The notes under the pieces were generated by a model. That model was not told the origin of the DNA. It did not search any database and saw only the letters and a program-made list of their open reading frames with translations. A DNA stretch of 64,000 nucleotides from Candidatus Nomurabacteria bacterium. Its GTDB lineage: Bacteria > Patescibacteriota > Saccharimonadia > Saccharimonadales > JAGQNJ01. The translations under genes were made by a program, and so were the position numbers. Positions within the stretch are counted from its first letter, which is position 1. Every line of letters starts with the position of its first letter. The DNA is taken from assembly GCA_023898625.1 (NCBI GenBank), contig CP060231.1, forward strand, positions 673,890 through 737,889. The letters are read 5' to 3'. Shown in pieces: positions 5,580-40,269 of the stretch.

Positions 5580-7012
5580 GAGGAACGCTGAGTATATTTA
5601 GCCCAAAATTTGCCAAAGTAATTGTCTATATGTTACAGAGTACTGAATACCAAGTGGCGCCATATTTGCGTTGGTTTTGGCGGACGGTTAATTTTGGCCA
5701 GGTGATGAAACGGCGTGAGCTAGAGTATACGAAGGTAGCTAGGTTGGTACTACTCGCTCTGCGCTGCGGTATTGCTGTACAGATTATTTTAGGATTGATG
5801 ATGCTGTGTCTGGGTCTTGCTCGTGGCGTTAATGGGGCTTGGCCTTTAGGAGCAGCTCTGATTATTTCCTATCCTGTTGTATGGGCGCACCTGATAGTTA
5901 TTCCGCTAGTTTTGGGTGATTGGTTGGTGATACGGCCAAAAAACCGCAAGCTTATCGAGCAGTCTAGACACATCTTTGCCAATCATCCAGGTATAAAGAT
6001 TGCTGTAGCTGGCAGCTATGGCAAGACGACTATGAAAGAGCTGTTGGGTACTGTTCTTGGCGAGGGGAAAAAGGTTGCCATCACGCCGGCCAACAAGAAT
6101 GTTGCTAGCTCACATGCTAGGTTTGCGATGGGGCTGGACGGAGATGAGGACGTGCTGGTGGTTGAGTTCGGCGAAGGACGGCCAGGTGATGTCGCTGGGT
6201 TTTCGAAGACGGTTCAGCCCAACGTAGGTGTGATTACAGGTATTGCGCCAGCGCATTTGGATCAGTATCCTTCTCTGGATGCGGCCGCACAAGATATATT
6301 CTCCCTTGCAGATTACCTGCACGACGACAATGTGTATGTAAACGCTGAATCTTCGACGGCCCAGAAGTTCCTAAAAGACACGCATATTCTGTACTCGCAT
6401 GGAGGGGTAGGTGAATGGAAAGTGTCTGACATCCATGTAGATTTTGCGGGTACTCGGTTTCGCATGACCAAGAAGGGGAAGAGTTTGCAGCTAAAAAGTG
6501 GGCTGCTTGGTAGGCACCAGGTTGGACCCTTGGCTGCGGTGGTCGCTATTGCTGACTCTGTTGGACTGAATGCAAAACAGATTGAGGAGGGTGTTGCCAA
6601 GACAAAGTCGTTTGAGCACCGAATGCATGCCCGAAGTCTGCGTGGTGCTTGGATAATCGACGACAGCTATAACGGTAATATTGACGGTATTCGGGCTGGT
6701 CTCGCGCTATTGAGTGAACTGCCAGCCAAACGCAAAATTTACGTCACTCCGGGGTTAGTCGATCAGGGTGTCGAGACTGAGCGTGTACATAGAGAGATGG
6801 GTGAACTGATTGCACGTACAAACCCAGACAAAGTTGTGCTAATGAAGAACTCGGTTACGGCACACATCCTTAGAGGGTTGGAAAGTAAGGGCTTCAAGAA
6901 AGAAGTTGTGATAGAGGATAATCCCTTGGAATACTACACCAATCTAGAGCACTTCATTGCGGCTGGCGATGTGGTGTTGATGCAAAACGACTGGACTGAC
7001 AACTACCAATAA
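5576..7012 (+). CDS. Mur ligase family protein (MurF-like) with a membrane-spanning N-terminal region
   Basis: 478 aa; P-loop AGSYGKTTMKE, then GPAHLD-like IAPAHLD and DDSYNGN motifs as in MurF; the first ~125 aa are hydrophobic helices rather than the usual N-domain; ATGA overlap with the upstream gene. Confidence 0.7.
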   Translation: MRGTLSIFSPKFAKVIVYMLQSTEYQVAPYLRWFWRTVNFGQVMKRRELEYTKVARLVLLALRCGIAVQIILGLMMLCLGLARGVNGAWPLGAALIISYPVVWAHLIVIPLVLGDWLVIRPKNRKLIEQSRHIFANHPGIKIAVAGSYGKTTMKELLGTVLGEGKKVAITPANKNVASSHARFAMGLDGDEDVLVVEFGEGRPGDVAGFSKTVQPNVGVITGIAPAHLDQYPSLDAAAQDIFSLADYLHDDNVYVNAESSTAQKFLKDTHILYSHGGVGEWKVSDIHVDFAGTRFRMTKKGKSLQLKSGLLGRHQVGPLAAVVAIADSVGLNAKQIEEGVAKTKSFEHRMHARSLRGAWIIDDSYNGNIDGIRAGLALLSELPAKRKIYVTPGLVDQGVETERVHREMGELIARTNPDKVVLMKNSVTAHILRGLESKGFKKEVVIEDNPLEYYTNLEHFIAAGDVVLMQNDWTDNYQ

Positions 7013-7051
7013 TTGCAATTGACGTATACAATTGTATGCTACAATTGCAGT

Positions 7052-8218
7052 ATGAAAACTATCGCGGTATTTTTTGGCGGACGTTCCACCGAGCACGATG
7101 TTTCGGTAGTGACGGCCCTCGCAAGTATCATTAAACCCCTAGAACTCAGCAAACAATACAAAGTAGAACCGGTGTATATCGCCAAGGACGGCGCTTGGTA
7201 TTGGGGCGAGAAGCTCAAAGACATTAACCTATTTAGTAGCGGTGAATTGAATGAATTTCTACACAAAGCTCAACCGGCCAGTGTGCAGTTTGATGGCAGT
7301 ATGACACTCGTCAAAGCCTCTGGTATTGCTGGTCGCAAGAAGCTACAAAAGATTGATATTGCATTTCCGGCGATGCATGGCACCTATGGTGAAGACGGCA
7401 GCTTGATGGGATTGTTTCGGATGGCGAATATTCCTTTTGTTGGTTGTGATATGGATGCTGCGGTGTTGTGCATGGACAAGGTTTTGGCCAAGCAAGTAGC
7501 CGAGACGAATGGAGTTCCAGTCGCTAAGTACGAGTATCTATACCGAGATACTTTTGCGAGAAAGACGAAAGACACGCTCGACGGCATCGAAAAATCTTTG
7601 CGCTATCCGATGTTTGTGAAGCCGGCACATCTTGGTTCGAGTATTGGCATATCTCGTGTGACAAATACCCAAGAGCTACAGAATGCCATAGAAGTGGCAT
7701 CACATTATGACGATAAGGTAATCGTTGAGGAAGAAGTACCAAACTTGATAGAAGTGACGTTGCCAATTATGGGCAATGAAGAACTACGGGTAGCATCGTT
7801 AGAGCGCCCGTTAACAAAGCCAGAGGACTTCTTTGACTTTGAAACAAAATATATGCAAGGCGGCAAAAAGGGCGGTAAAAAAGGTGGCGCCAAAGGGTCA
7901 CAGGGCTACAGTGAAGTGCCAGCCAAGTTGGACCAGAAGTTGTACGATAAGGCCGAAGAGCTTGGGCGACAAGTTTACAGATCGCTTGGTTGTCAGGGAA
8001 TTGCCCGTATCGATATGTTGATTGACGGTAAATCAGGAGTTGTCTACTTCAACGAGGCCAATCCACTACCTGGTGGACTGTATGAACATAACTGGCAAGC
8101 CTCTGGCGTGAGCAGTGTGGAACTTGTACTAACACTTGTACGCTTTGCCGAAGAGCGTTGGCAGCGCCAGCAACAATACGCCACCGTATTTAATACAAAT
8201 TATCTTAATCAGTTTTGA
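7052..8218 (+). CDS. ddl: D-alanine--D-alanine ligase
   Basis: Start refined to MKTIAVFFGGRSTEHDVS, the typical Ddl N-terminus; ATP-grasp length; TGcTACAAT box 6 nt upstream. Confidence 0.9.
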   Translation: MKTIAVFFGGRSTEHDVSVVTALASIIKPLELSKQYKVEPVYIAKDGAWYWGEKLKDINLFSSGELNEFLHKAQPASVQFDGSMTLVKASGIAGRKKLQKIDIAFPAMHGTYGEDGSLMGLFRMANIPFVGCDMDAAVLCMDKVLAKQVAETNGVPVAKYEYLYRDTFARKTKDTLDGIEKSLRYPMFVKPAHLGSSIGISRVTNTQELQNAIEVASHYDDKVIVEEEVPNLIEVTLPIMGNEELRVASLERPLTKPEDFFDFETKYMQGGKKGGKKGGAKGSQGYSEVPAKLDQKLYDKAEELGRQVYRSLGCQGIARIDMLIDGKSGVVYFNEANPLPGGLYEHNWQASGVSSVELVLTLVRFAEERWQRQQQYATVFNTNYLNQF

Positions 8219-8230
8219 TTATGCAACAAT

Positions 8231-9142
8231 ATGAATAACACTAAAGTTTTTTTCAGTAAAGACATTGTGGAATTTAACCAAGCAAGCTTGAGTATTGCTA
8301 GTTCGGCAGTGCTTTATGGGTTGAGTGTTTATACTGTCTTTCCGATAAATCTTACTTCAAAGGGATTGATGGCTTTTAGGTTGAAAGATCATTTTCGTAG
8401 ACTCCAAGAATCTTCTAAAATCATTGGAATTGATGACTTCTTGAAAGAATGGGATTATCCAAAATTTGAAGATGCCGTCAAGCAGTTAGCTAGTGCTAAT
8501 ATGATTGATGAGGATGTTTTTGTGCGCGCAACCGTACATGTTGTTGATGCGGTGCCAGGCACTAAGTCAAGAGGCCTAAAAACAATCCTAACTATGTTTA
8601 TTTATCCTGCGCACCCAATTTTGCCCCAAAAGAATGCTCGATTAAAGACCAGTGTTTGGCGACGCGTTCCGGACTTTGCCATTCCGGCTAGGGCAAAAGT
8701 GAACGGAGCATACATAAACTCAGTACTCGCTAAGCAAGATGCAATAGATAGCGGTTATGATGATTGTGTATTCTTGGATACACAAGGTCATGTCTGTGAA
8801 CTTTCGGCCGCTAATATTTTTCTAGTTAGAGAAGGGATTATAATTACCCCAAGCAGAACTAGTGATTTGCTTGAAGGAATAAATAGGCGTACCATCATTG
8901 AGTTAGCGGAAGCTCAGAGCATAAAAGTTGAACAACGAACTGTTGATCTAACGGAGCTGTATATTGCCGATGAGGTATTTGCGTGCGGAACCTCCGCATT
9001 TGTATCAAGTATATCTGAGGTAGACGCGCGCAAAATTGGAGATGGCAATACTGGCGCATTAACCACTAAGCTCGCACAGTTGCATTATGATCTCTTGCAT
9101 GGCAAGGGTGCATTGGCTACCAAATATTTAACTAAAGTTTAA
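8231..9142 (+). CDS. class IV aminotransferase (branched-chain or D-amino-acid aminotransferase)
   Basis: 303-aa ORF with fold-type IV features (RLQESS..., ELSAANIF, EGINRRT); a position after murF-like and ddl hints at D-Ala/D-Glu supply. Confidence 0.7.
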   Translation: MNNTKVFFSKDIVEFNQASLSIASSAVLYGLSVYTVFPINLTSKGLMAFRLKDHFRRLQESSKIIGIDDFLKEWDYPKFEDAVKQLASANMIDEDVFVRATVHVVDAVPGTKSRGLKTILTMFIYPAHPILPQKNARLKTSVWRRVPDFAIPARAKVNGAYINSVLAKQDAIDSGYDDCVFLDTQGHVCELSAANIFLVREGIIITPSRTSDLLEGINRRTIIELAEAQSIKVEQRTVDLTELYIADEVFACGTSAFVSSISEVDARKIGDGNTGALTTKLAQLHYDLLHGKGALATKYLTKV

Positions 9143-9185
9143 GATTTTCAGACTAACTAGTTAAGTCGTGATATAATTACCCCTG

Positions 9186-12002
9186 ATGCAACGCTATAAT
9201 CCAAAAGAAATTGAACCCAAGTGGCAAAAAATTTGGGATGATAAACAAATTTATAAAGCCGATCTTAATAGTAGCAAACATAAGTACATTGCTATGAGCA
9301 TGTTTAATTACCCCAGTGGGGCGGGTATTCACATTGGCCATGCCATGAATTACACGATTAGCGATGTTATGGCGCGGTATAAACGTCAGAAAGGTTATGA
9401 AAGCTATCATCCAGTTGGCTGGGATGCTTTTGGTTTGCCGGCCGAGAATTACGCCATCAAAACCGGTATTAGTCCACAGGAATCAATGAAGCAGATTATC
9501 CCAAGCTATCACAAGCAGTACAAAGCTATGGGCTGGAGTAACGACTGGAGTAAAGAGATTGCCACGCACGAGCCTACTTACTACAAGTGGACACAGTGGA
9601 TTTTTGCACAGATGTACAAAAACGACCTCGCTTATCAAGAAGCACGCATGCAATGGTGGTGTACCAAGTGCCAGACAGTCCTTGCTAACGAACAAGTGAT
9701 TGACGGAAAATGTTGGCGCCACGATGGAGCCGATGACCCGATTGTCGAGAAAAAGGAGGTCAAGCAGTGGTTCTTCAAGATTACCGACTATGCCGATGAA
9801 CTGCTTGAGGCAACCGATGCACTTGATTGGTCAGAAGTAGTAAAAACAGCTCAGAAAAACTGGATTGGCAAAAGTAAAGGTGCCGAGGTTGATTTCTTGC
9901 TACATAAGGTTTCTAACCCACATGCCCAAATGGCTCGAAGCTATATCATGGGTCAGCAAAATATCACCGAAGATGACATATTTGAGATTGGCGGTACAGT
10001 GGATAATCGAACAGAAGCAGGACATCTATGTGTTGAGTTTCCCGTGTCAAAAGCAGATGATTTTGAGCGTCTAATAACAGACAATATGGAGACGGGCTTC
10101 TGGAATGAGTATCTGACAAACGAAAAAGTCGTATTCATTTTCAAACATAAAGACGGTTATATCGAAAGATTTGAATTCAACGATAGTAACGCAAGTCAGA
10201 TTTGTGCGCTTGGCAATAAGTTCAATAACCTTCCAGAGCCAGCTCCCAATGAGACTCCATGGCAATGGTTAGCAAACAATAGTTGGTATAGCTCTATAGT
10301 GCCCAAAGTCAGGGTTTTCACAACTCGGCCGGATACAATCTTTGGGGCAACTTTCTTGGTTTTGGCACCAGAGCATGAGCTTGTAGAGCAACTTACTACA
10401 AAAGAGCAAAAAGTCAAAGTAGATGATTACATAAAACAGGCCACCAAAAAGACAGAAGTTGAACGCCAGGCCAGCAAGGAAAAAACAGGCGTCTTTACAG
10501 GTTCTTACGCTATTAATCCAGCAAGTGGCGAGAAGATCCCCGTTTGGGTGGCAGATTATGTGTTGGTTGGCTACGGCACTGGGGCAATTATGGCGGTTCC
10601 TGCCCACGACGAACGCGATAGAGAATTTGCCCAGGATCACGAACTTCCTCTTGTCCAGGTAGTAGACATCGGTGAAGTAGATGATGCTACGGCTGAGGGT
10701 GTGATGATTAACTCTGGTAAGTATGATGGGATGAGTTCTGCTGAGGCGCGGGAAAAGATTATTGCCGACCTAGAGAAGCAGGGTCTAGCAAAAGAAAAGA
10801 CAACCTTTAAAATTCGTGATTGGAGTGTCAGTCGTCAACGTTACTGGGGTGCACCGATACCGATTATCAATTGCGAGAAGTGTGGGCAAGTACTTGTCCC
10901 AGACGAAGATTTGCCAGTAGTTTTGCCGGAGCTCGATGACTATGCACCGAGCGGTGATGGTCGCAGTGCTCTGGCCAGGGCAACAGATTGGCTTGAAGTT
11001 GATTGTCCAAAATGTGGCGGAAAGGGCGAGCGGGAAACCGATACACTTGATACTTACATTTGTAGTAGCTGGTACTACTTACGATACTTTGATCCAGCGA
11101 ACAAAACCAAAGTCTTCGATAGCTCCATAGTTAATAAATGGATGCCGATTGATTTTTACAATGGTGGTGATCATGCTACCGCACATATGATCTATGCTCG
11201 TTTTATAACAAGATTTTTCCATAAAATTGGACTTTTAGATAATCCCGAACCATTCAAGAAGTTTTTGTTTAATGGTAAAGTCATGGCTAGTGATGGTCAA
11301 ATGTTTAGTAAGTCAAAGGGCAACGGAGTTGATCCCCTTGAAATTATTAACCAAGGTTATGGTGCAGATGCGCTTAGAACATACCTAATGTTTGCGGCGC
11401 CATTAGATCTTTGGATTCGCTGGGATCCACAAGGGGTGCCAGGCGCATACCGCTTTTTGAATAGGGTATGGAATCTTTCCCAAGAATTTATTGAGGCAAA
11501 AGAAGAGGGTGACCGAAATAATCGAGCTCTTAAAATTATTCACCCTGCAATCAAAAAGGTAACAGAAGATTTAGAAGATCAAAAGTACAATACTGCAATA
11601 GCTTCAATGATGAAAGCAACCAACCAGTTATATGAAGTGAAGGCAAAATATGGTGTAAAAAAGAACGGTGATTGGCAGATGGCAATTGAGTCTTTGGCGA
11701 TGCTTATCGCGCCTTTTGCCCCCCATACTGCTGATGAAATCTGGAATCAGTTAGGACATCAAGATAGTATTAATATTGATCATTGGCCGGAGTGGGACGA
11801 TAGCTTTATGGTCCAAGATGTAGTTGATGTAGTTGTCCAAGTAAACGGTAAATTACGTGGCAAGGTTCAGATAAGTTCAGGCAGTTCTCAGGATGAGGTT
11901 ATAACCTTAGTACATGCCGATAGTAAGCTTATGCAGTATATCGGTGCAGAGGTGAAAAAAGTTGTTTACGTGCCAGATAGGCTTGTTAATTTTGTAGTCT
12001 GA
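9186..12002 (+). CDS. leuS: leucyl-tRNA synthetase carrying a ~137-aa extra segment before the editing domain
   Basis: 938 aa; HIGH (HIGHAMNY), TTRPDT, AVPAHDERD and KMSKS-like (FSKSKG) motifs. Confidence 0.95.
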   Translation: MQRYNPKEIEPKWQKIWDDKQIYKADLNSSKHKYIAMSMFNYPSGAGIHIGHAMNYTISDVMARYKRQKGYESYHPVGWDAFGLPAENYAIKTGISPQESMKQIIPSYHKQYKAMGWSNDWSKEIATHEPTYYKWTQWIFAQMYKNDLAYQEARMQWWCTKCQTVLANEQVIDGKCWRHDGADDPIVEKKEVKQWFFKITDYADELLEATDALDWSEVVKTAQKNWIGKSKGAEVDFLLHKVSNPHAQMARSYIMGQQNITEDDIFEIGGTVDNRTEAGHLCVEFPVSKADDFERLITDNMETGFWNEYLTNEKVVFIFKHKDGYIERFEFNDSNASQICALGNKFNNLPEPAPNETPWQWLANNSWYSSIVPKVRVFTTRPDTIFGATFLVLAPEHELVEQLTTKEQKVKVDDYIKQATKKTEVERQASKEKTGVFTGSYAINPASGEKIPVWVADYVLVGYGTGAIMAVPAHDERDREFAQDHELPLVQVVDIGEVDDATAEGVMINSGKYDGMSSAEAREKIIADLEKQGLAKEKTTFKIRDWSVSRQRYWGAPIPIINCEKCGQVLVPDEDLPVVLPELDDYAPSGDGRSALARATDWLEVDCPKCGGKGERETDTLDTYICSSWYYLRYFDPANKTKVFDSSIVNKWMPIDFYNGGDHATAHMIYARFITRFFHKIGLLDNPEPFKKFLFNGKVMASDGQMFSKSKGNGVDPLEIINQGYGADALRTYLMFAAPLDLWIRWDPQGVPGAYRFLNRVWNLSQEFIEAKEEGDRNNRALKIIHPAIKKVTEDLEDQKYNTAIASMMKATNQLYEVKAKYGVKKNGDWQMAIESLAMLIAPFAPHTADEIWNQLGHQDSINIDHWPEWDDSFMVQDVVDVVVQVNGKLRGKVQISSGSSQDEVITLVHADSKLMQYIGAEVKKVVYVPDRLVNFVV

Positions 12003-34556: not shown

Positions 34557-34894
34557 TGAAGATAGTTAAAAAGATATCAATATCAGAATTAAAAACTATG
34601 GCAGAAAAAATGGACGGAAACTTAGTTAAAGCAGATGTTGACGTTGCCAAACAGATTGTAATAGTAGATATGCCTATGCACTTTGAGGGAGAGCAAGAGT
34701 TACTTGAGAAGGGCTCTAGGCAAAAAGATCTTTGGGGTATCAATTTGTTTCCAAAAAAGTTTGGCACTGATGAATTTATAGCTTTTGAATCAATGATAAA
34801 TATCAAACCACGTAGTAATCAGAGTATGACCATACAATCAGAAGAAATATGCAATCAAATCATAGACATTATCGAGGGGGTTGTCTATGAGTAA
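34556..34894 (+). CDS. small conserved hypothetical protein
   Basis: ATG overlaps the pheS stop (TGATG); about 112 aa; no catalytic motif recognised. Confidence 0.55.
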   Translation: MKIVKKISISELKTMAEKMDGNLVKADVDVAKQIVIVDMPMHFEGEQELLEKGSRQKDLWGINLFPKKFGTDEFIAFESMINIKPRSNQSMTIQSEEICNQIIDIIEGVVYE

Positions 34895-35201
34895 TTATCA
34901 TACGGATGCTTTAAAAAATGCTGATATTTTTACGGTTATGGGATCAATTTATGCAGAAGTAGCACGATATGACTCGGCTATTGCGTCTAATAAGATTGAT
35001 CAAGCAAAACAGGCTATCGTTCGAGCTAACGAGCTTATCGAATATTCACAACAATTAGAGCAAATCAATAGGGCGCAAAAGCTTGAGATACAAAAGTTTT
35101 ATGATGTGTTTTTACTGCGTGCACAAAAGTTTAAAATGAGTAATTTAGATAATTATTTATTGCCATTTGCTTTGGCTTCACGAAGGAGGTTGGTTGTATG
35201 A
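34887..35201 (+). CDS. small helical hypothetical protein
   Basis: ATG 6 nt after GAGGGGG; overlaps the upstream stop by 8 nt. Confidence 0.5.
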   Translation: MSNYHTDALKNADIFTVMGSIYAEVARYDSAIASNKIDQAKQAIVRANELIEYSQQLEQINRAQKLEIQKFYDVFLLRAQKFKMSNLDNYLLPFALASRRRLVV

Positions 35202-35626
35202 ATCTGCAGACAGTTAGTGAGTTTTTAGATACTCAAGAAACATGTGTCTTATCGACTGTTAGTAGTGAAGGCTGGCCAATGTCGGCGACAGTTGGATTTT
35301 CTCATGATAGTGAATTTGCGATATTAATTGGCACTGATAATACAACTCGCAAGTACAAAAATTTAATTAGCAACTCAAAAGTGTCTATTGTGGTGGGTGT
35401 AACTTCGCCAAAGACCGTCCAGATTCAAGGTGTTGCTAAAGAGGTCAATGCTGATGATATAGCCAATAGACTGGAGCTACATTTTAATAAATTGCCTTCT
35501 GCAAAAACTTTCTATGACACACCAGGTCAACGATATTTTATCATCACTCCTACCTGGTTAAGGATGACGGATTATTCACAAAAGCCATCAATTTTTGAAG
35601 CAGAGGAGTTTAATTATGAAGATTAG
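35198..35626 (+). CDS. pyridoxamine 5-prime-phosphate oxidase-like FMN-binding split-barrel protein
   Basis: 142 aa; ETCVLSTVSSEGWPMSATV... resembles the PNPOx/general-stress-26 family; ATGA overlap and GAAGGAGG upstream. Confidence 0.65.
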   Translation: MNLQTVSEFLDTQETCVLSTVSSEGWPMSATVGFSHDSEFAILIGTDNTTRKYKNLISNSKVSIVVGVTSPKTVQIQGVAKEVNADDIANRLELHFNKLPSAKTFYDTPGQRYFIITPTWLRMTDYSQKPSIFEAEEFNYED

Positions 35627-38105: not shown

Positions 38106-38276
38106 TTTTTTTGGATCGCAAAATGTAATTTATATATAAATGACTACATGTTGGTGCTGAATTTTTTAGTTGAAGTCGCTCTGCTGACATGCTTTTCATT
38201 GACCTCTCCTAAATCGGCATGCTAACATAAAGCTAATACTTAATTCTAAGAGGGCTCATCAATATAGTAATTACTT

Positions 38277-39404
38277 ATGGCAAGGTTACCAATACCAGGA
38301 CAAGATAGAGGTGTATGGGGTGATATCCTTAACGAGTATTTATCTGTATCCCATGAATCAGACGGTACGTTAAAATCGAGCGCAATACCTCCAGGATCAG
38401 GTGCAACTGGAGCTACTGGCCCCATTGGTTCCGTGGGCGCCACAGGATCAACTGGACTTCAGGGTGCAACTGGAGCAACAGGCCCTGGCTCTATTGGCGC
38501 AACAGGTCCAATGGGTTCAACGGGTCCAATTGGGGTAGCTGGCGCAACAGGACCAACGGGTCCAGGTGTTATAACTGGTGGTACTACTGGACAAGTTCTG
38601 GCTAAAGCTTCAAATGCAGACAATGACACTACCTGGGTGAACATTGCAGACAATGCCGTCACTTCAGTTAATGGTGATACTGGCCCAATCGTTAACTTAA
38701 ATGCAACAGATGTAGGAGCAGCTCCAACTTCACATTCTCATGATGCCACAGACATCACTTCAGGGACAGTGGCTACAACTCGGCTCGGGTCAGGTACGGC
38801 GGACTCGACGAAGTTCCTGCGTGGCGACCAGACGTGGGCGGCACCGATGATGCGGGAACTGCCCCTCTCGTCGGGGTATCTCATCGCTCTCCCCGCTGGT
38901 GGCGTTGGCTCCTTCGGATTGTCAGCGTCGGCTGGTCGGTTCTGGTTGATCCCGATGTGGTTGCCCGCTGGAACCTAGGACCGTGTCGGTGTCGCCACCA
39001 CCGGAGCGGGGACCACCACATGGCGACTCGGTGCCTACAAGGCCAACCCGTCGACGCTCATGCCCGACGGCACGGCGCTGATACAAGAGTTCGGCACCAT
39101 CGACCTGAGCGTCACGCCCGGAGAGTTGTCTGTGTCCACATCGTTCACGGTGCCCACCTCTGGGCTCTACTGGATGGCCGTGCTGGTCGATTCGTACACG
39201 TCGGCCCCATCGGCGGTGGGATGGCAAGGTCAATACACGGTCCCGCCGGTCCCGTGGATGCCTGTGACCGTGCACCAGATCGCTCTTGGGCGATCGTTGT
39301 GGCTTCGGATGGCCTACTCGGTCCCGACGGGTGCGGTTCCGGCGACGTGTCCGACCACAGCGTGGAGCGATCTGGGACCCCAGGTCAGATTGAGGGTGGC
39401 GTGA
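38277..39404 (+). pseudogene. phage tail-fibre-like protein with collagen-like repeats; single frame interrupted by an in-frame TAG at 38976-38978
   Basis: N-terminus [36 protein letters not shown] repeats and the [18 protein letters not shown] motif resemble actinophage minor tail or fibre proteins. The same frame, with the same G/C third-position bias, continues after the TAG to a TGA at 39402-39404. Confidence 0.7.
38400..38567 (+). repeat. collagen-like G-X-Y triplet repeat (about 17 triplets, one register shift at GPGSIG)
   Basis: [56 protein letters not shown] read directly from the translation. Confidence 0.9.
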
Positions 39405-39545
39405 TGAACGAGTCCATCTTCTCGAACGGTCGCCTCGTCGAGCAGACCGTCGACAACGGCGACGGCACCGGCACCCGCACCACCTTCGACGCCGACGGCA
39501 ACGTCGACACGGTCGAACAACTCACCGGGCTACCCATCCCCGAAC
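38780..39545 (+). other. high-GC patch (about 65-68% G+C) embedded in frame in low-GC genes
   Basis: 41/60 G+C at 38821-38880 against 25/60 at 38641-38700; codons are dominated by tcg/acg/ccg/gtc/ggc; AT-rich sequence resumes after about 39545. Confidence 0.85.
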
Positions 39546-39631
39546 CAGTTCCACCTACACAAGCAGAACAGATAGCAGAGTTACAGGCTACCGTTGCCAA
39601 GCTTAAGGACGCTTTGAAAAAACGTGACTAA
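39404..39631 (+). CDS. small protein translationally coupled to the fibre gene (candidate fibre assembly or partner protein)
   Basis: GTGATGA junction: the stop at 39402-39404 overlaps the ATG at 39404. 75 aa, MNESIFSNGRLVEQTVDNGDGTGTRTTFDADGNVDTVEQL... with a C-terminal coiled-coil-like AEQIAELQATVAKLKDALKK. Confidence 0.6.
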   Translation: MNESIFSNGRLVEQTVDNGDGTGTRTTFDADGNVDTVEQLTGLPIPEPVPPTQAEQIAELQATVAKLKDALKKRD

Positions 39632-39674
39632 TATCTAGGCTTACTAACAGAGATGCGAATCATAAAGTATGCTA

Positions 39675-39703
39675 TTGACATTTCGGTAAGTAGTTATTAT
39701 AAT
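39675..39703 (+). promoter_or_regulatory. perfect consensus sigma70 promoter
   Basis: TTGACA (39675-39680), exactly 17-nt spacer, TATAAT (39698-39703); no plausible ORF follows. Confidence 0.7.
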
Positions 39704-39834
39704 CAACTTAGTTTGGTTGAGTCTTATGGATTCCCAGGCAGGACTTTGACAGATGTATATAGGTAGGCAACAGTATTAGTGCATAACTATTTTTGTGTAT
39801 TATTACTGTTGTCTAAATAATAGACTAATTTCGT

Positions 39835-40100
39835 GTCGGCGCCAGGATGGGGATGGCACCGGCCTGCAGAGAAGGTGAGTTGAGCGAGAAATCGTTCCTC
39901 CTGCCACCACAAGGGGCAAGGCAGTATCATGCAAACCTGGGCGGGTTTCGTGATGCCTTCTCCACACCCTACGCCTTCTTGGCTTATCCCAGTAGGTCGA
40001 GGAGGTTACCCGGACCTTCGTTGTGTGCTAAGCATCGCTTCGCATGGCGGAGGTCCGGGACCAATTGGTCTATTAGTAGTGTCGAGCACTAAGGTTGAGT
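39835..40100 (+). ncRNA. unclassified GC-rich structured RNA candidate
   Basis: 36/60 G+C at 39841-39900 against 25/60 in the flank. Four-way junction closed by GAGAAGG (39869-75) / CCTTCTC (39956-62), with hairpins at 39883-96 (GAAA tetraloop), 39901-24 and 39926-54. 12-bp helix 40009-20 / 40048-59. The strand is inferred from the GNRA loop and the upstream promoter. Confidence 0.45.
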
Positions 40101-40269
40101 TTATTAGAGCATTTTTGCTCCTCACTTCTTCGCTCCATTAATTACTAATATACATCTGTCCTTTCATCAGAGCATGTATTTATATACATTCTGTGATGAG
40201 AGAATAAGTCATAAAATGTCCTACAATCAATGTCGTATATTTAGGCTTTTGCATGTAAACTACTAACTG

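Follow-up and report, generated by a model that had tools for sequence, protein, structure and literature searches.

Mosaic tail fibres are a classical subject in phage biology, with well-known cases in P2, Mu, T4 and lambda. Exchange of a whole host-recognition module, made of the distal part of the fibre and its cognate chaperone, has been described between unrelated Alteromonas phages (PMC10579305), and recombination of fibre genes also occurs in chromosomal machines of phage origin such as tailocins (PMC13195805) and extracellular contractile injection systems (PMC12923769). In the Saccharibacteria, whose cultured members are epibionts on Actinobacteria (PMC10746230), the acquisition of an arginine deiminase system has been reported (PMC8764695), and Liu et al. 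found that 7 of 9 co-targeted putative Saccharibacteria phages were also hit by spacers from the clustered regularly interspaced short palindromic repeats (CRISPR) of Actinobacteria (PMC10746230), a plausible setting for contact between both gene pools. Here we analyse a stretch of 64,000 nucleotides (hereafter the window; GCA_023898625.1, contig CP060231.1, positions 673,890 to 737,889), deposited as Candidatus Nomurabacteria bacterium, which carries what appears to be a phage-derived fibre cassette of two genes between pheT and a gene for an ABC exporter. Like tailocins and contractile injection systems, this is a chromosomal locus showing within-species polymorphism of the target-binding part of a fibre through homologous recombination; unlike them, it consists of the fibre pair alone, with no sheath, tube or baseplate genes.

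The first gene of the cassette is built of an N-terminal MARLP head, a collagen-like shaft, the motif RLGSGTA...FLRGDxTW and a C-terminal tip, which is predicted to form a beta-sandwich and presumably binds a receptor; the second gene is small and translationally coupled to the first. Native codon usage is seen in the promoter, head and shaft and again over the last 28 codons of the small gene, whereas the tip and the first 47 codons of that gene were overwritten by a tract of 0.68-0.77 kb. This tract came from a homologous cassette of 65-70% G+C, a type known from the tail modules of siphophages akin to Arthrobacter, Microbacterium and Gordonia phages. The best conserved stretches, the fibre motif and ...EQLTGLPIPEP, were the two crossover sites. 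A later single change from TAT to TAG would have truncated the fibre within the acquired part, after 46 of its codons, leaving a locus predicted to encode a head-and-shaft protein of 233 amino acids (aa) without most of the tip, plus an intact small open reading frame (ORF). The other allele of the species, with a low-GC tip of the same family, is likewise interrupted, by a -1 offset at a run of six G (G6), and its small gene is decayed. Altogether, we consider it likely that this is a chromosomal fibre locus with exchangeable tips, that the tip of the window allele (allele A) came from the actinophage gene pool, and that this allele is now probably inactive. Tip modules would be exchanged as in phage host-range loci, and the full-length fibre would at present be either not made or not needed.

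A high-GC tract within two reading frames

Composition, homology and comparison of alleles together show that foreign sequence has taken the place of the fibre tip and of the 5' part of the small gene. The earlier note on this DNA, made from the sequence alone, had already proposed a foreign high-GC patch spanning the C-terminal fibre domain and the first two-thirds of a coupled small gene, and its G+C counts (25/60 at 38641-38700 and 41/60 at 38821-38880) came out identical on recount. The G+C content of 38781-39545 is 65.2% (0.652) versus 40.3% for the whole 64-kb window, where 150-bp windows have a mean of 0.403 (standard deviation 0.058); the maximum is 0.667 in the patch and at most 0.573 anywhere in the window outside the three G+C-rich stretches of the locus. 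The earlier of the other two stretches (38340-38610) encodes the collagen-like Gly-X-Y repeats and owes its G+C to the first two codon positions, the G+C at third codon positions (GC3) being 0.2-0.35, and the second island (39840-40090) is an apparently structured non-coding RNA element. A GC3 profile, proposed as a check, revealed the expected discontinuity: 0.26 (38277-38780), 0.78 (38781-39401), 0.89 (39404-39544) and back to 0.36 (39545-39628), next to neighbours with 0.32 (pheT) and 0.35 (ABC exporter). The step in composition is one of synonymous positions and codon usage, not of amino-acid content, and compositional drift in situ is ruled out by the coincidence of the GC3 step with the homology boundaries.

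Both junctions were found where they had been placed. At the 5' side the codons switch from ACA ACT to CGG CTC GGG between 38780 and 38781, at the start of the conserved fibre motif, and at the 3' side from CCC GAA to CCA GTT CCA between 39545 and 39546, within ...LTGLPIPEP/VPPTQ.... The conservation of the 5' site was confirmed by the occurrence of RLGSG...FLRGDxTW in viral contigs of 0.32-0.71 G+C, the form RLGSGTA...FLRGDQTW being present in at least 207 IMG/VR stretches; scanning IMG/VR with the family alignment recovered this ubiquitous motif only, and a scan with the tip alone gave no match.

The swap of a module can be seen directly in a second allele of the same species (allele B), which differs from the window only at 38840-39520. 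Clustering at 90% identity groups the 233-aa protein with forms of 195 and 198 aa, which belong to allele B. This allele was found in at least 19 contigs (L178-L182), where its neighbouring genes are those of the window and its flanks are 96.5-99.6% identical to it. Its segment encodes a low-GC tip of the same family (GC3 0.39) in the -1 frame relative to the shaft. Alleles A and B have 30 identical high-GC nucleotides in the motif, and allele B turns GC-rich about 24 nucleotides earlier, near 38757; such a difference in tract ends is what recombination within a conserved motif would be expected to leave. The features of the locus, all on the forward strand, are as follows.

38199..38228 (+): promoter-like site upstream of the fibre gene, TTGACC, 18 nucleotides, TAACAT with TG extension (consensus scan).
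38277..38978 (+): ORF1, truncated collagen-like fibre gene, 233 aa, closed by an in-frame TAG.
38277..38399 (+): MARLP head domain at the N-terminus (residues 1-41), of native, low GC3, recognised by homologous heads.
38400..38567 (+): shaft of collagen-like Gly-X-Y repeats (residues 42-97), its G+C richness confined to codon positions 1 and 2 (GC3 0.2-0.35).
38781..39545 (+): high-GC patch, 65.2% G+C, GC3 0.78-0.89, homologous to an actinophage-type pair of fibre tip and small gene.
38781..38837 (+): conserved fibre motif and 5' crossover zone, from codon alignment and from the motif in IMG/VR contigs of 0.32-0.71 G+C.
38840..39520 (+): allele-A-specific segment, 681 bp, replaced by 636 bp in allele B (megablast and mismatch maps against L178-L182).
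38976..38978 (+): in-frame TAG, TAT (Tyr) in relatives, which read WLPAGTYDRVGVATT.
38979..39404 (+): severed remainder of the tip, 141 codons in the ORF1 frame plus TGA, without further stop or frameshift.
39404..39631 (+): ORF2, small gene of 75 aa, its start overlapping the TGA (TGATG), with GAGG 8 nucleotides upstream.
39546..39631 (+): tail of ORF2 with native low G+C (GC3 0.36), VPPTQAEQIAELQATVAKLKDALKKRD, left from the copy of this gene family that the recipient itself had.

The patch takes in the first 47 codons of ORF2, the last 28 being native. P0184 ends in a homologue of this low-GC stretch (PQPPEPSDAEKIAELQATVDALLDALTGGAP), and allele B has the stretch too, with 5 mismatches over 39521-39631. 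Since the native tail is itself homologous to tails of the phage family, the recipient already had the cassette, and the event was a replacement and not an insertion.

That the mosaic is real, and not a chimeric assembly, is clear from the recurrence of both junctions in contigs of different sources. The exact 233-aa product, entered at NCBI as USN95382.1 / MFO0886825.1 and annotated 'collagen-like protein', was found in at least 23 contigs from separate samples and is indexed in 31 blocks, its sources including a 939,581-bp NCBI contig (GCA_046350715.1) as well as independent ENA and Logan assemblies. Four independent contigs (L001, L002, L003 and L006, coming from GCA_046350715.1 at NCBI, two ENA assemblies and one Logan assembly) cross both junctions with 99.8-99.9% identity, and allele A loci are 99.2-100% identical over both.

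Relatives of the tract and of the fibre cassette

As the earlier note had expected of a foreign patch, its closest relatives are all of high G+C, the same gene pair being found in siphophage-like contigs of 62-70% G+C. In blastn searches, contigs L007, L008 and L062 match only window positions 38751-39546, at 80-81% identity, and a metagenome scan added one further relative, L175 (76%). These four contigs have 0.67-0.69 G+C, are 80-81% (nucleotide) and 74-79% (amino acid) identical to the patch, and carry uninterrupted tips with a Tyr at the position of the TAG; being mutually 94.6-97% identical, each at 80-81% from the window, they form one tight clade. With the stop masked, the C-terminal module aligns straight across it to the proteins P0001 and P0002 (74-76% amino-acid identity, 100% of the length). 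In these relatives the fibre gene is followed by a small gene that starts with MNESIFSNGRLIEQTVDNGDGTGTRT...EQLTGLPI and diverges afterwards, an arrangement common to L007, L008 and L062-L065.

A tail-morphogenesis module surrounds the fibre gene in the donor-type contigs L007, L062 and L063. The tape-measure protein of L007 matches 519 INPHARED records (Arthrobacter 199, Microbacterium 172, Gordonia 93), and the capsid of L063, a contig that also encodes SPP1_Dit, aligns over 99% of its length with the Arthrobacter phage Kitkat capsid, at 49% identity. With relatives of the patch lying in actinophage-type tail modules, the donor gene pool is actinophage-like; a phage of the organism's own host may plausibly have been the donor. 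Among 50,697 records of isolated phages, blastn and tblastn with the patch gave no match, and thus no cultured phage with this tip. The event had been called recent in the earlier note, a claim that is not supported, since it cannot be dated from donors of which the best are only 80-81% identical; between the window and its high-GC relatives we counted 49 changes from G/C to A/T (S-to-W) and 33 in the opposite sense (W-to-S), their direction being unpolarised as the relatives are equidistant.

The tip family is rare, with 149 cluster representatives among 1.84 billion, and in all of them the domain is the extreme C-terminus of proteins of 134-1484 aa with varied shafts. No match was found in Pfam or among PDB sequences, including a profile search of the PDB. 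A low-confidence AlphaFold model of the intact relative P0001 is suggestive of a beta-sandwich, and its fold matches are led by viral collagen-like fibre proteins in BFVD, with weak matches in the PDB to lectin/CBM domains and to tail-tip proteins of mycobacteriophages.

More than 500 proteins of 72-95 aa belong to the small-gene family. The gene of each member with a contig read lies directly 3' of a fibre gene, in phage-like contigs of 62-70% G+C and in the company of genes for a major capsid protein, SPP1_Dit and very long tape measures. ORF2 has the position that a chaperone-like gene would have, directly 3' of the fibre gene, coupled to it through TGATG and co-transferred with the tip. 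Against described chaperone families it gave no Pfam match above noise and no PHROG match, and one database source names a relative 'YD repeat-containing protein'. A search for a low-GC homologue by means of a degenerate IAELQATV pattern matched only unrelated coiled coils.

As for the native part of the fibre, its head recurs in related form in short proteins encoded on Saccharimonadales/Patescibacteria chromosomes and in Streptomyces phage proteins (50-58% identity, with 58% over 38 aa for a collagen-repeat protein of phage BRock). The shaft stays under the cut-off of Pfam Collagen (23.5 bits versus 27.2, E 4.7e-5), and matches PHROG tail-fibre families, including 5073 and 6320, with E values of 1e-10 to 1e-11. 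Short MARLP-head proteins (160-220 aa), many ending in ...DVWLK or ...DLWIDTS, also occur in non-phage chromosomal contexts (L158 8001-10415, L160 3237-5831), each gene directly 5' of a large variable one, coding for either a 635-aa PKD-domain or a 678-aa PhoD-like protein.

An intact cassette was found in a 486,810-bp contig (L176), in the non-phage context tatC ... hrcA-grpE-dnaK. Its uninterrupted protein of 323 aa combines a MARLP head (62% identity to the window head over 37 aa) with a tip that belongs to the family of the window tip (35% identity over 170 aa, the alignment running straight across the window TAG), and is followed by a small-gene homologue of 91 aa, with a native GC3 of 0.39-0.43 throughout. 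Being intact and of native codon usage, this copy indicates that head, tip and small gene are a genuine maintained cellular pair in at least one lineage. At 9325-11485 of the same contig the cassette is followed by three genes (198, 313 and 210 aa) with signal-peptide-like N-termini and Thr/Ser-rich repeats, which from these features may be a cell-surface cluster.

Cross-GC mosaics of this cassette are also carried by phages. Six IMG/VR contigs (L146, L149, L152, L154, L155 and L157) of 0.43-0.53 G+C hold a patch of fibre and small gene of 0.65-0.70 G+C, which shows that movement of the cassette across this divide is recurrent. In L146 the patch spans 6500-10300 and in L155 2350-3900, and the fibre gene of the latter fuses a low-GC N-terminal part of about 60 codons to a high-GC body. 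Such contigs invite the idea of an indirect route, in which the cassette arrived by way of a mosaic phage of low or medium G+C and the chromosomal copy is a leftover of phage DNA. We think this unlikely: none of the six has the MARLP head or a close copy of the window tip, their hosts could not be inferred (isolated phages gave no match to the lysin of L155), the 10 kb around the locus are free of further phage genes, and the head gene and promoter are common to another species, L010, at the same chromosomal site.

Interruption of both alleles and its meaning

The earlier note had described a fused frame of 376 codons preserved across both junctions. What stood of this is that the homologous genes are in frame at both of them, and what did not is the open frame and with it a working fibre, as the in-frame TAG at 38976-38978 truncates the product 46 codons past the motif. 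The window gene does not have the uninterrupted frame through the tip that a phage tail fibre would have. The TAG is present in every sampled copy of allele A and removes about 140 of roughly 190 tip residues, and no intact A-type allele was found among 5.8 billion protein clusters. As the uninterrupted relatives have TAT at this position, one T-to-G change created the stop. Its later origin is suggested by the ratio of non-synonymous to synonymous substitution rates (dN/dS) between the window and L007, which is 0.37 on either side of the stop and 0.42 in the small ORF; the equal values before and after it indicate that most of the divergence arose with the whole domain under selection, and that the stop would be comparatively young. 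In the ORF1 frame, the codons at 38979-39401 are closed by a TGA at 39402-39404. Among allele A contigs there are two single-nucleotide polymorphisms in or beside the patch, one at 38759, at the 5' junction, and the other at 38988, inside the allele-A-specific segment, where it changes Gly to Cys four codons past the stop.

Reassignment of the stop codon was ruled out. TAG terminates 17 of the 45 window ORFs of at least 200 aa, which makes it the commonest genuine stop among them, and housekeeping ORFs are uninterrupted.

In allele B the frame changes at GAC GGG GGG TGA (L178 8589-8597), with a run of seven G (G7) 12 nucleotides downstream. If the run were one G longer, the two ORFs would be fused through ...SLDGGGVIPSGGVW..., colinear with the proteins P0412 and P0384, which have no interruption. 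The run is G6 in 5 out of 5 contigs from different samples, no polymorphism was seen among allele B contigs, and only a decayed remnant without a start is left of the small gene. The site may be one of slippage or -1 frameshifting, or a plain frameshift mutation.

With both alleles interrupted by different lesions, and with the sister species lacking the locus, we read the window allele as recently inactivated; that it is such a gene, and not a working adhesin, is the most likely interpretation of the sequences. Several observations weigh against this interpretation or against the wider scheme. After the TAG, 141 codons are still open with a dN/dS of 0.37, and the small ORF retains a good Shine-Dalgarno sequence, from which the TAG would be either very young or tolerated. 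In allele B, ORF2 is open for 185 low-GC codons with a GTG start that overlaps the upstream TGA, and this allele may be a working gene, made in two parts or expressed by frameshifting, instead of a decayed one. Either of alleles A and B may be the older. No close donor (above 81% nucleotide identity) was found by which to identify the source or to date the event, and the AlphaFold model of P0001 has a mean pLDDT (predicted local distance difference test) of 52.6, reaching 64-83 in the sandwich only.

The alternative favoured in the earlier note, a working adhesin for attachment to the host with a tip borrowed from a host actinophage, would now have to be made in full length by read-through of the TAG or in two pieces. 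The constant place of the tip family as C-terminal module of fibre-like proteins, the intact native-codon cassette of L176 in a large contig without flanking phage genes, and a tip polymorphism within the species, as diversifying selection would predict, all argue for it. So do a second in-frame fusion of low- and high-GC sequence at the same site in L010, the conserved promoter, the dN/dS of 0.37 continuing past the stop, and the CRISPR spacers of Actinobacteria that also target putative Saccharibacteria phages (PMC10746230). It is nonetheless improbable in view of a TAG present in every sampled copy at the cost of most of the tip, in a genome where TAG is the commonest genuine stop, of a second allele that is interrupted too, and of a sister species entirely without the locus. 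Moreover, no signal peptide or anchor is visible in the fibre sequence, and there is no Pfam adhesin domain. In its broader form, in which a Saccharibacteria fibre cassette with repeatedly replaced tips, some of them from host phages, mediates host recognition, and the fibre is expressed by slippage, by read-through or intact as in L176, we give the idea the same low credence.

Regulated expression, by slippage at the G6 of allele B or through a leaky TAG in allele A, is possible. Under this explanation the interruptions themselves would be regulatory, the G6 working as a switch at which slippage or -1 frameshifting would join the tip to the shaft at low frequency. The position of the frame change exactly at GAC GGG GGG TGA, the colinearity of the fusion obtained with an extra G, and the 185 open codons of allele B ORF2 fit such a switch, for which we nevertheless see little chance: the G6 is invariant in five contigs from different samples, the window TAG lies in no homopolymer and in no known read-through context, and no suppressor tRNA was found in the 64-kb window. 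Finally, an artefact, be it a chimeric assembly or contaminating high-GC reads joined within two reading frames, has a negligible probability and is already effectively refuted by the four contigs crossing both junctions, the 31 blocks and the homologous genes kept in frame, even if contigs L004 and L005 stop within the patch at 39464-39467, where assemblers sometimes break.

Chromosomal setting and relation to known systems

The earlier, tentative assignment of this genome to a Saccharibacteria-like organism was supported by all pheT relatives, labelled Saccharibacteria or Saccharimonadales (best 92%); this sits at odds with the NCBI name 'Candidatus Nomurabacteria bacterium', and judging from pheT the public label may be wrong. 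The locus is surrounded by cellular genes (pheS, pheT, ABC exporter, NUDIX, FKBP and similar), and the tail-module context of the donor-type contigs is missing from the window. The order pheT to ABC exporter is kept in about 30 Saccharibacteria/Saccharimonadales genomes. In the closest species (L009) there is no fibre pair at this site, only a spacer of 715 bp. In L010 (pheT 75% identical) the same site has the same promoter, an identical leader of 24 nucleotides (TGCTAACATAAAGCTAATACTTA) and a MARLP-collagen gene 63% identical to that of the window, followed by different distal genes. One of these, at L010 9530-10831, is an ORF of 433 aa of the DUF285/BspA-LRR type whose first 35 or so codons have a GC3 of 0.2-0.45 and the rest 0.7-0.9, which on codon usage reads as a second, independent in-frame fusion of low- and high-GC sequence at the same locus.

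Other parts of the region are also variable. Gene content in the interval from pheS to pheT (window 34558-35616) differs between strains, an adh_short gene being present in L004 and in the allele B strains and not in the window; allele A occurs in both backgrounds.

Just 3' of the fibre pair, at 39672-40165 (+), lies a conserved and apparently structured non-coding RNA, with a perfect TTGACA-17-TATAAT promoter at 39675-39703 and a long-range closing helix formed by GACAGATGTAT (from 39748) and ATACATCTGTC (to 40160). The window, L001, L009, L010, L011, L012 and L038 all carry it in the interval from pheT to the ABC exporter. RNAalifold on 6 sequences predicted 98 pairs, 47 of them with compensatory double changes, and Rfam 15 gave no match, even at E <=10. 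The window strain is devoid of a 61-nucleotide hairpin of this element near ~39962 (GGAGACCCAACC...GGTTGGGTCTCC), which was deleted between short TCTC repeats and is kept in L001-L003 and L006 (99.9% identical) and in L009, where the homologous insert has 65 nucleotides.

Host-cell recognition by Saccharibacteria and other ultra-small epibionts is still poorly understood, and this locus offers a clean case of sub-genic, in-frame recombination from the actinophage pool into the chromosome of an epibiont, at a gene with the architecture of a receptor-binding fibre. Even if the alleles are dead, they mark a place where two gene pools physically meet, they identify RLGSG...FLRGDxTW as a crossover point across a gap of 25 points of G+C, and they define a set of proteins, including the intact L176 copy, for host-binding tests. 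Were the host-recognition hypothesis true, the tip polymorphism within the species would be the epibiont counterpart of host-range switching in phages; if the alleles are merely decaying, we would be facing ordinary and well-documented tail-fibre mosaicism followed by gene loss.

The closest parallel is the exchange of fibre modules between phages, where, as here, the tip and the small gene downstream are swapped together, with a crossover at the conserved motif between shaft and tip and with reading frames kept. Unlike in those cases, the recipient is a lone chromosomal gene pair without phage genes nearby, the gap in G+C is of about 25 points, the small gene matches no known chaperone family and the product is truncated. 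With the collagen-like minor tail proteins of actinophages (BRock and the PHROG families) the window gene has in common the head (50-58%), the Gly-X-Y shaft and the RLGSG...FLRGDxTW motif, and it differs from them in having no virion gene module around it, in its Saccharibacteria-type codon usage and in being interrupted. As in the gene flow between Saccharibacteria, their phages and Actinobacteria, the genome of a member of an epibiont group has received DNA from a high-GC pool, the nearest isolated relatives of the source phages being infectious to Actinobacteria; unlike there, it is a sub-genic in-frame replacement and not a whole gene or operon. Module swapping in tail fibres is already well known, and what is unusual here is its occurrence in a lone gene pair of Saccharibacteria type, across a 25-point gap in G+C, with tip polymorphism within a single species.

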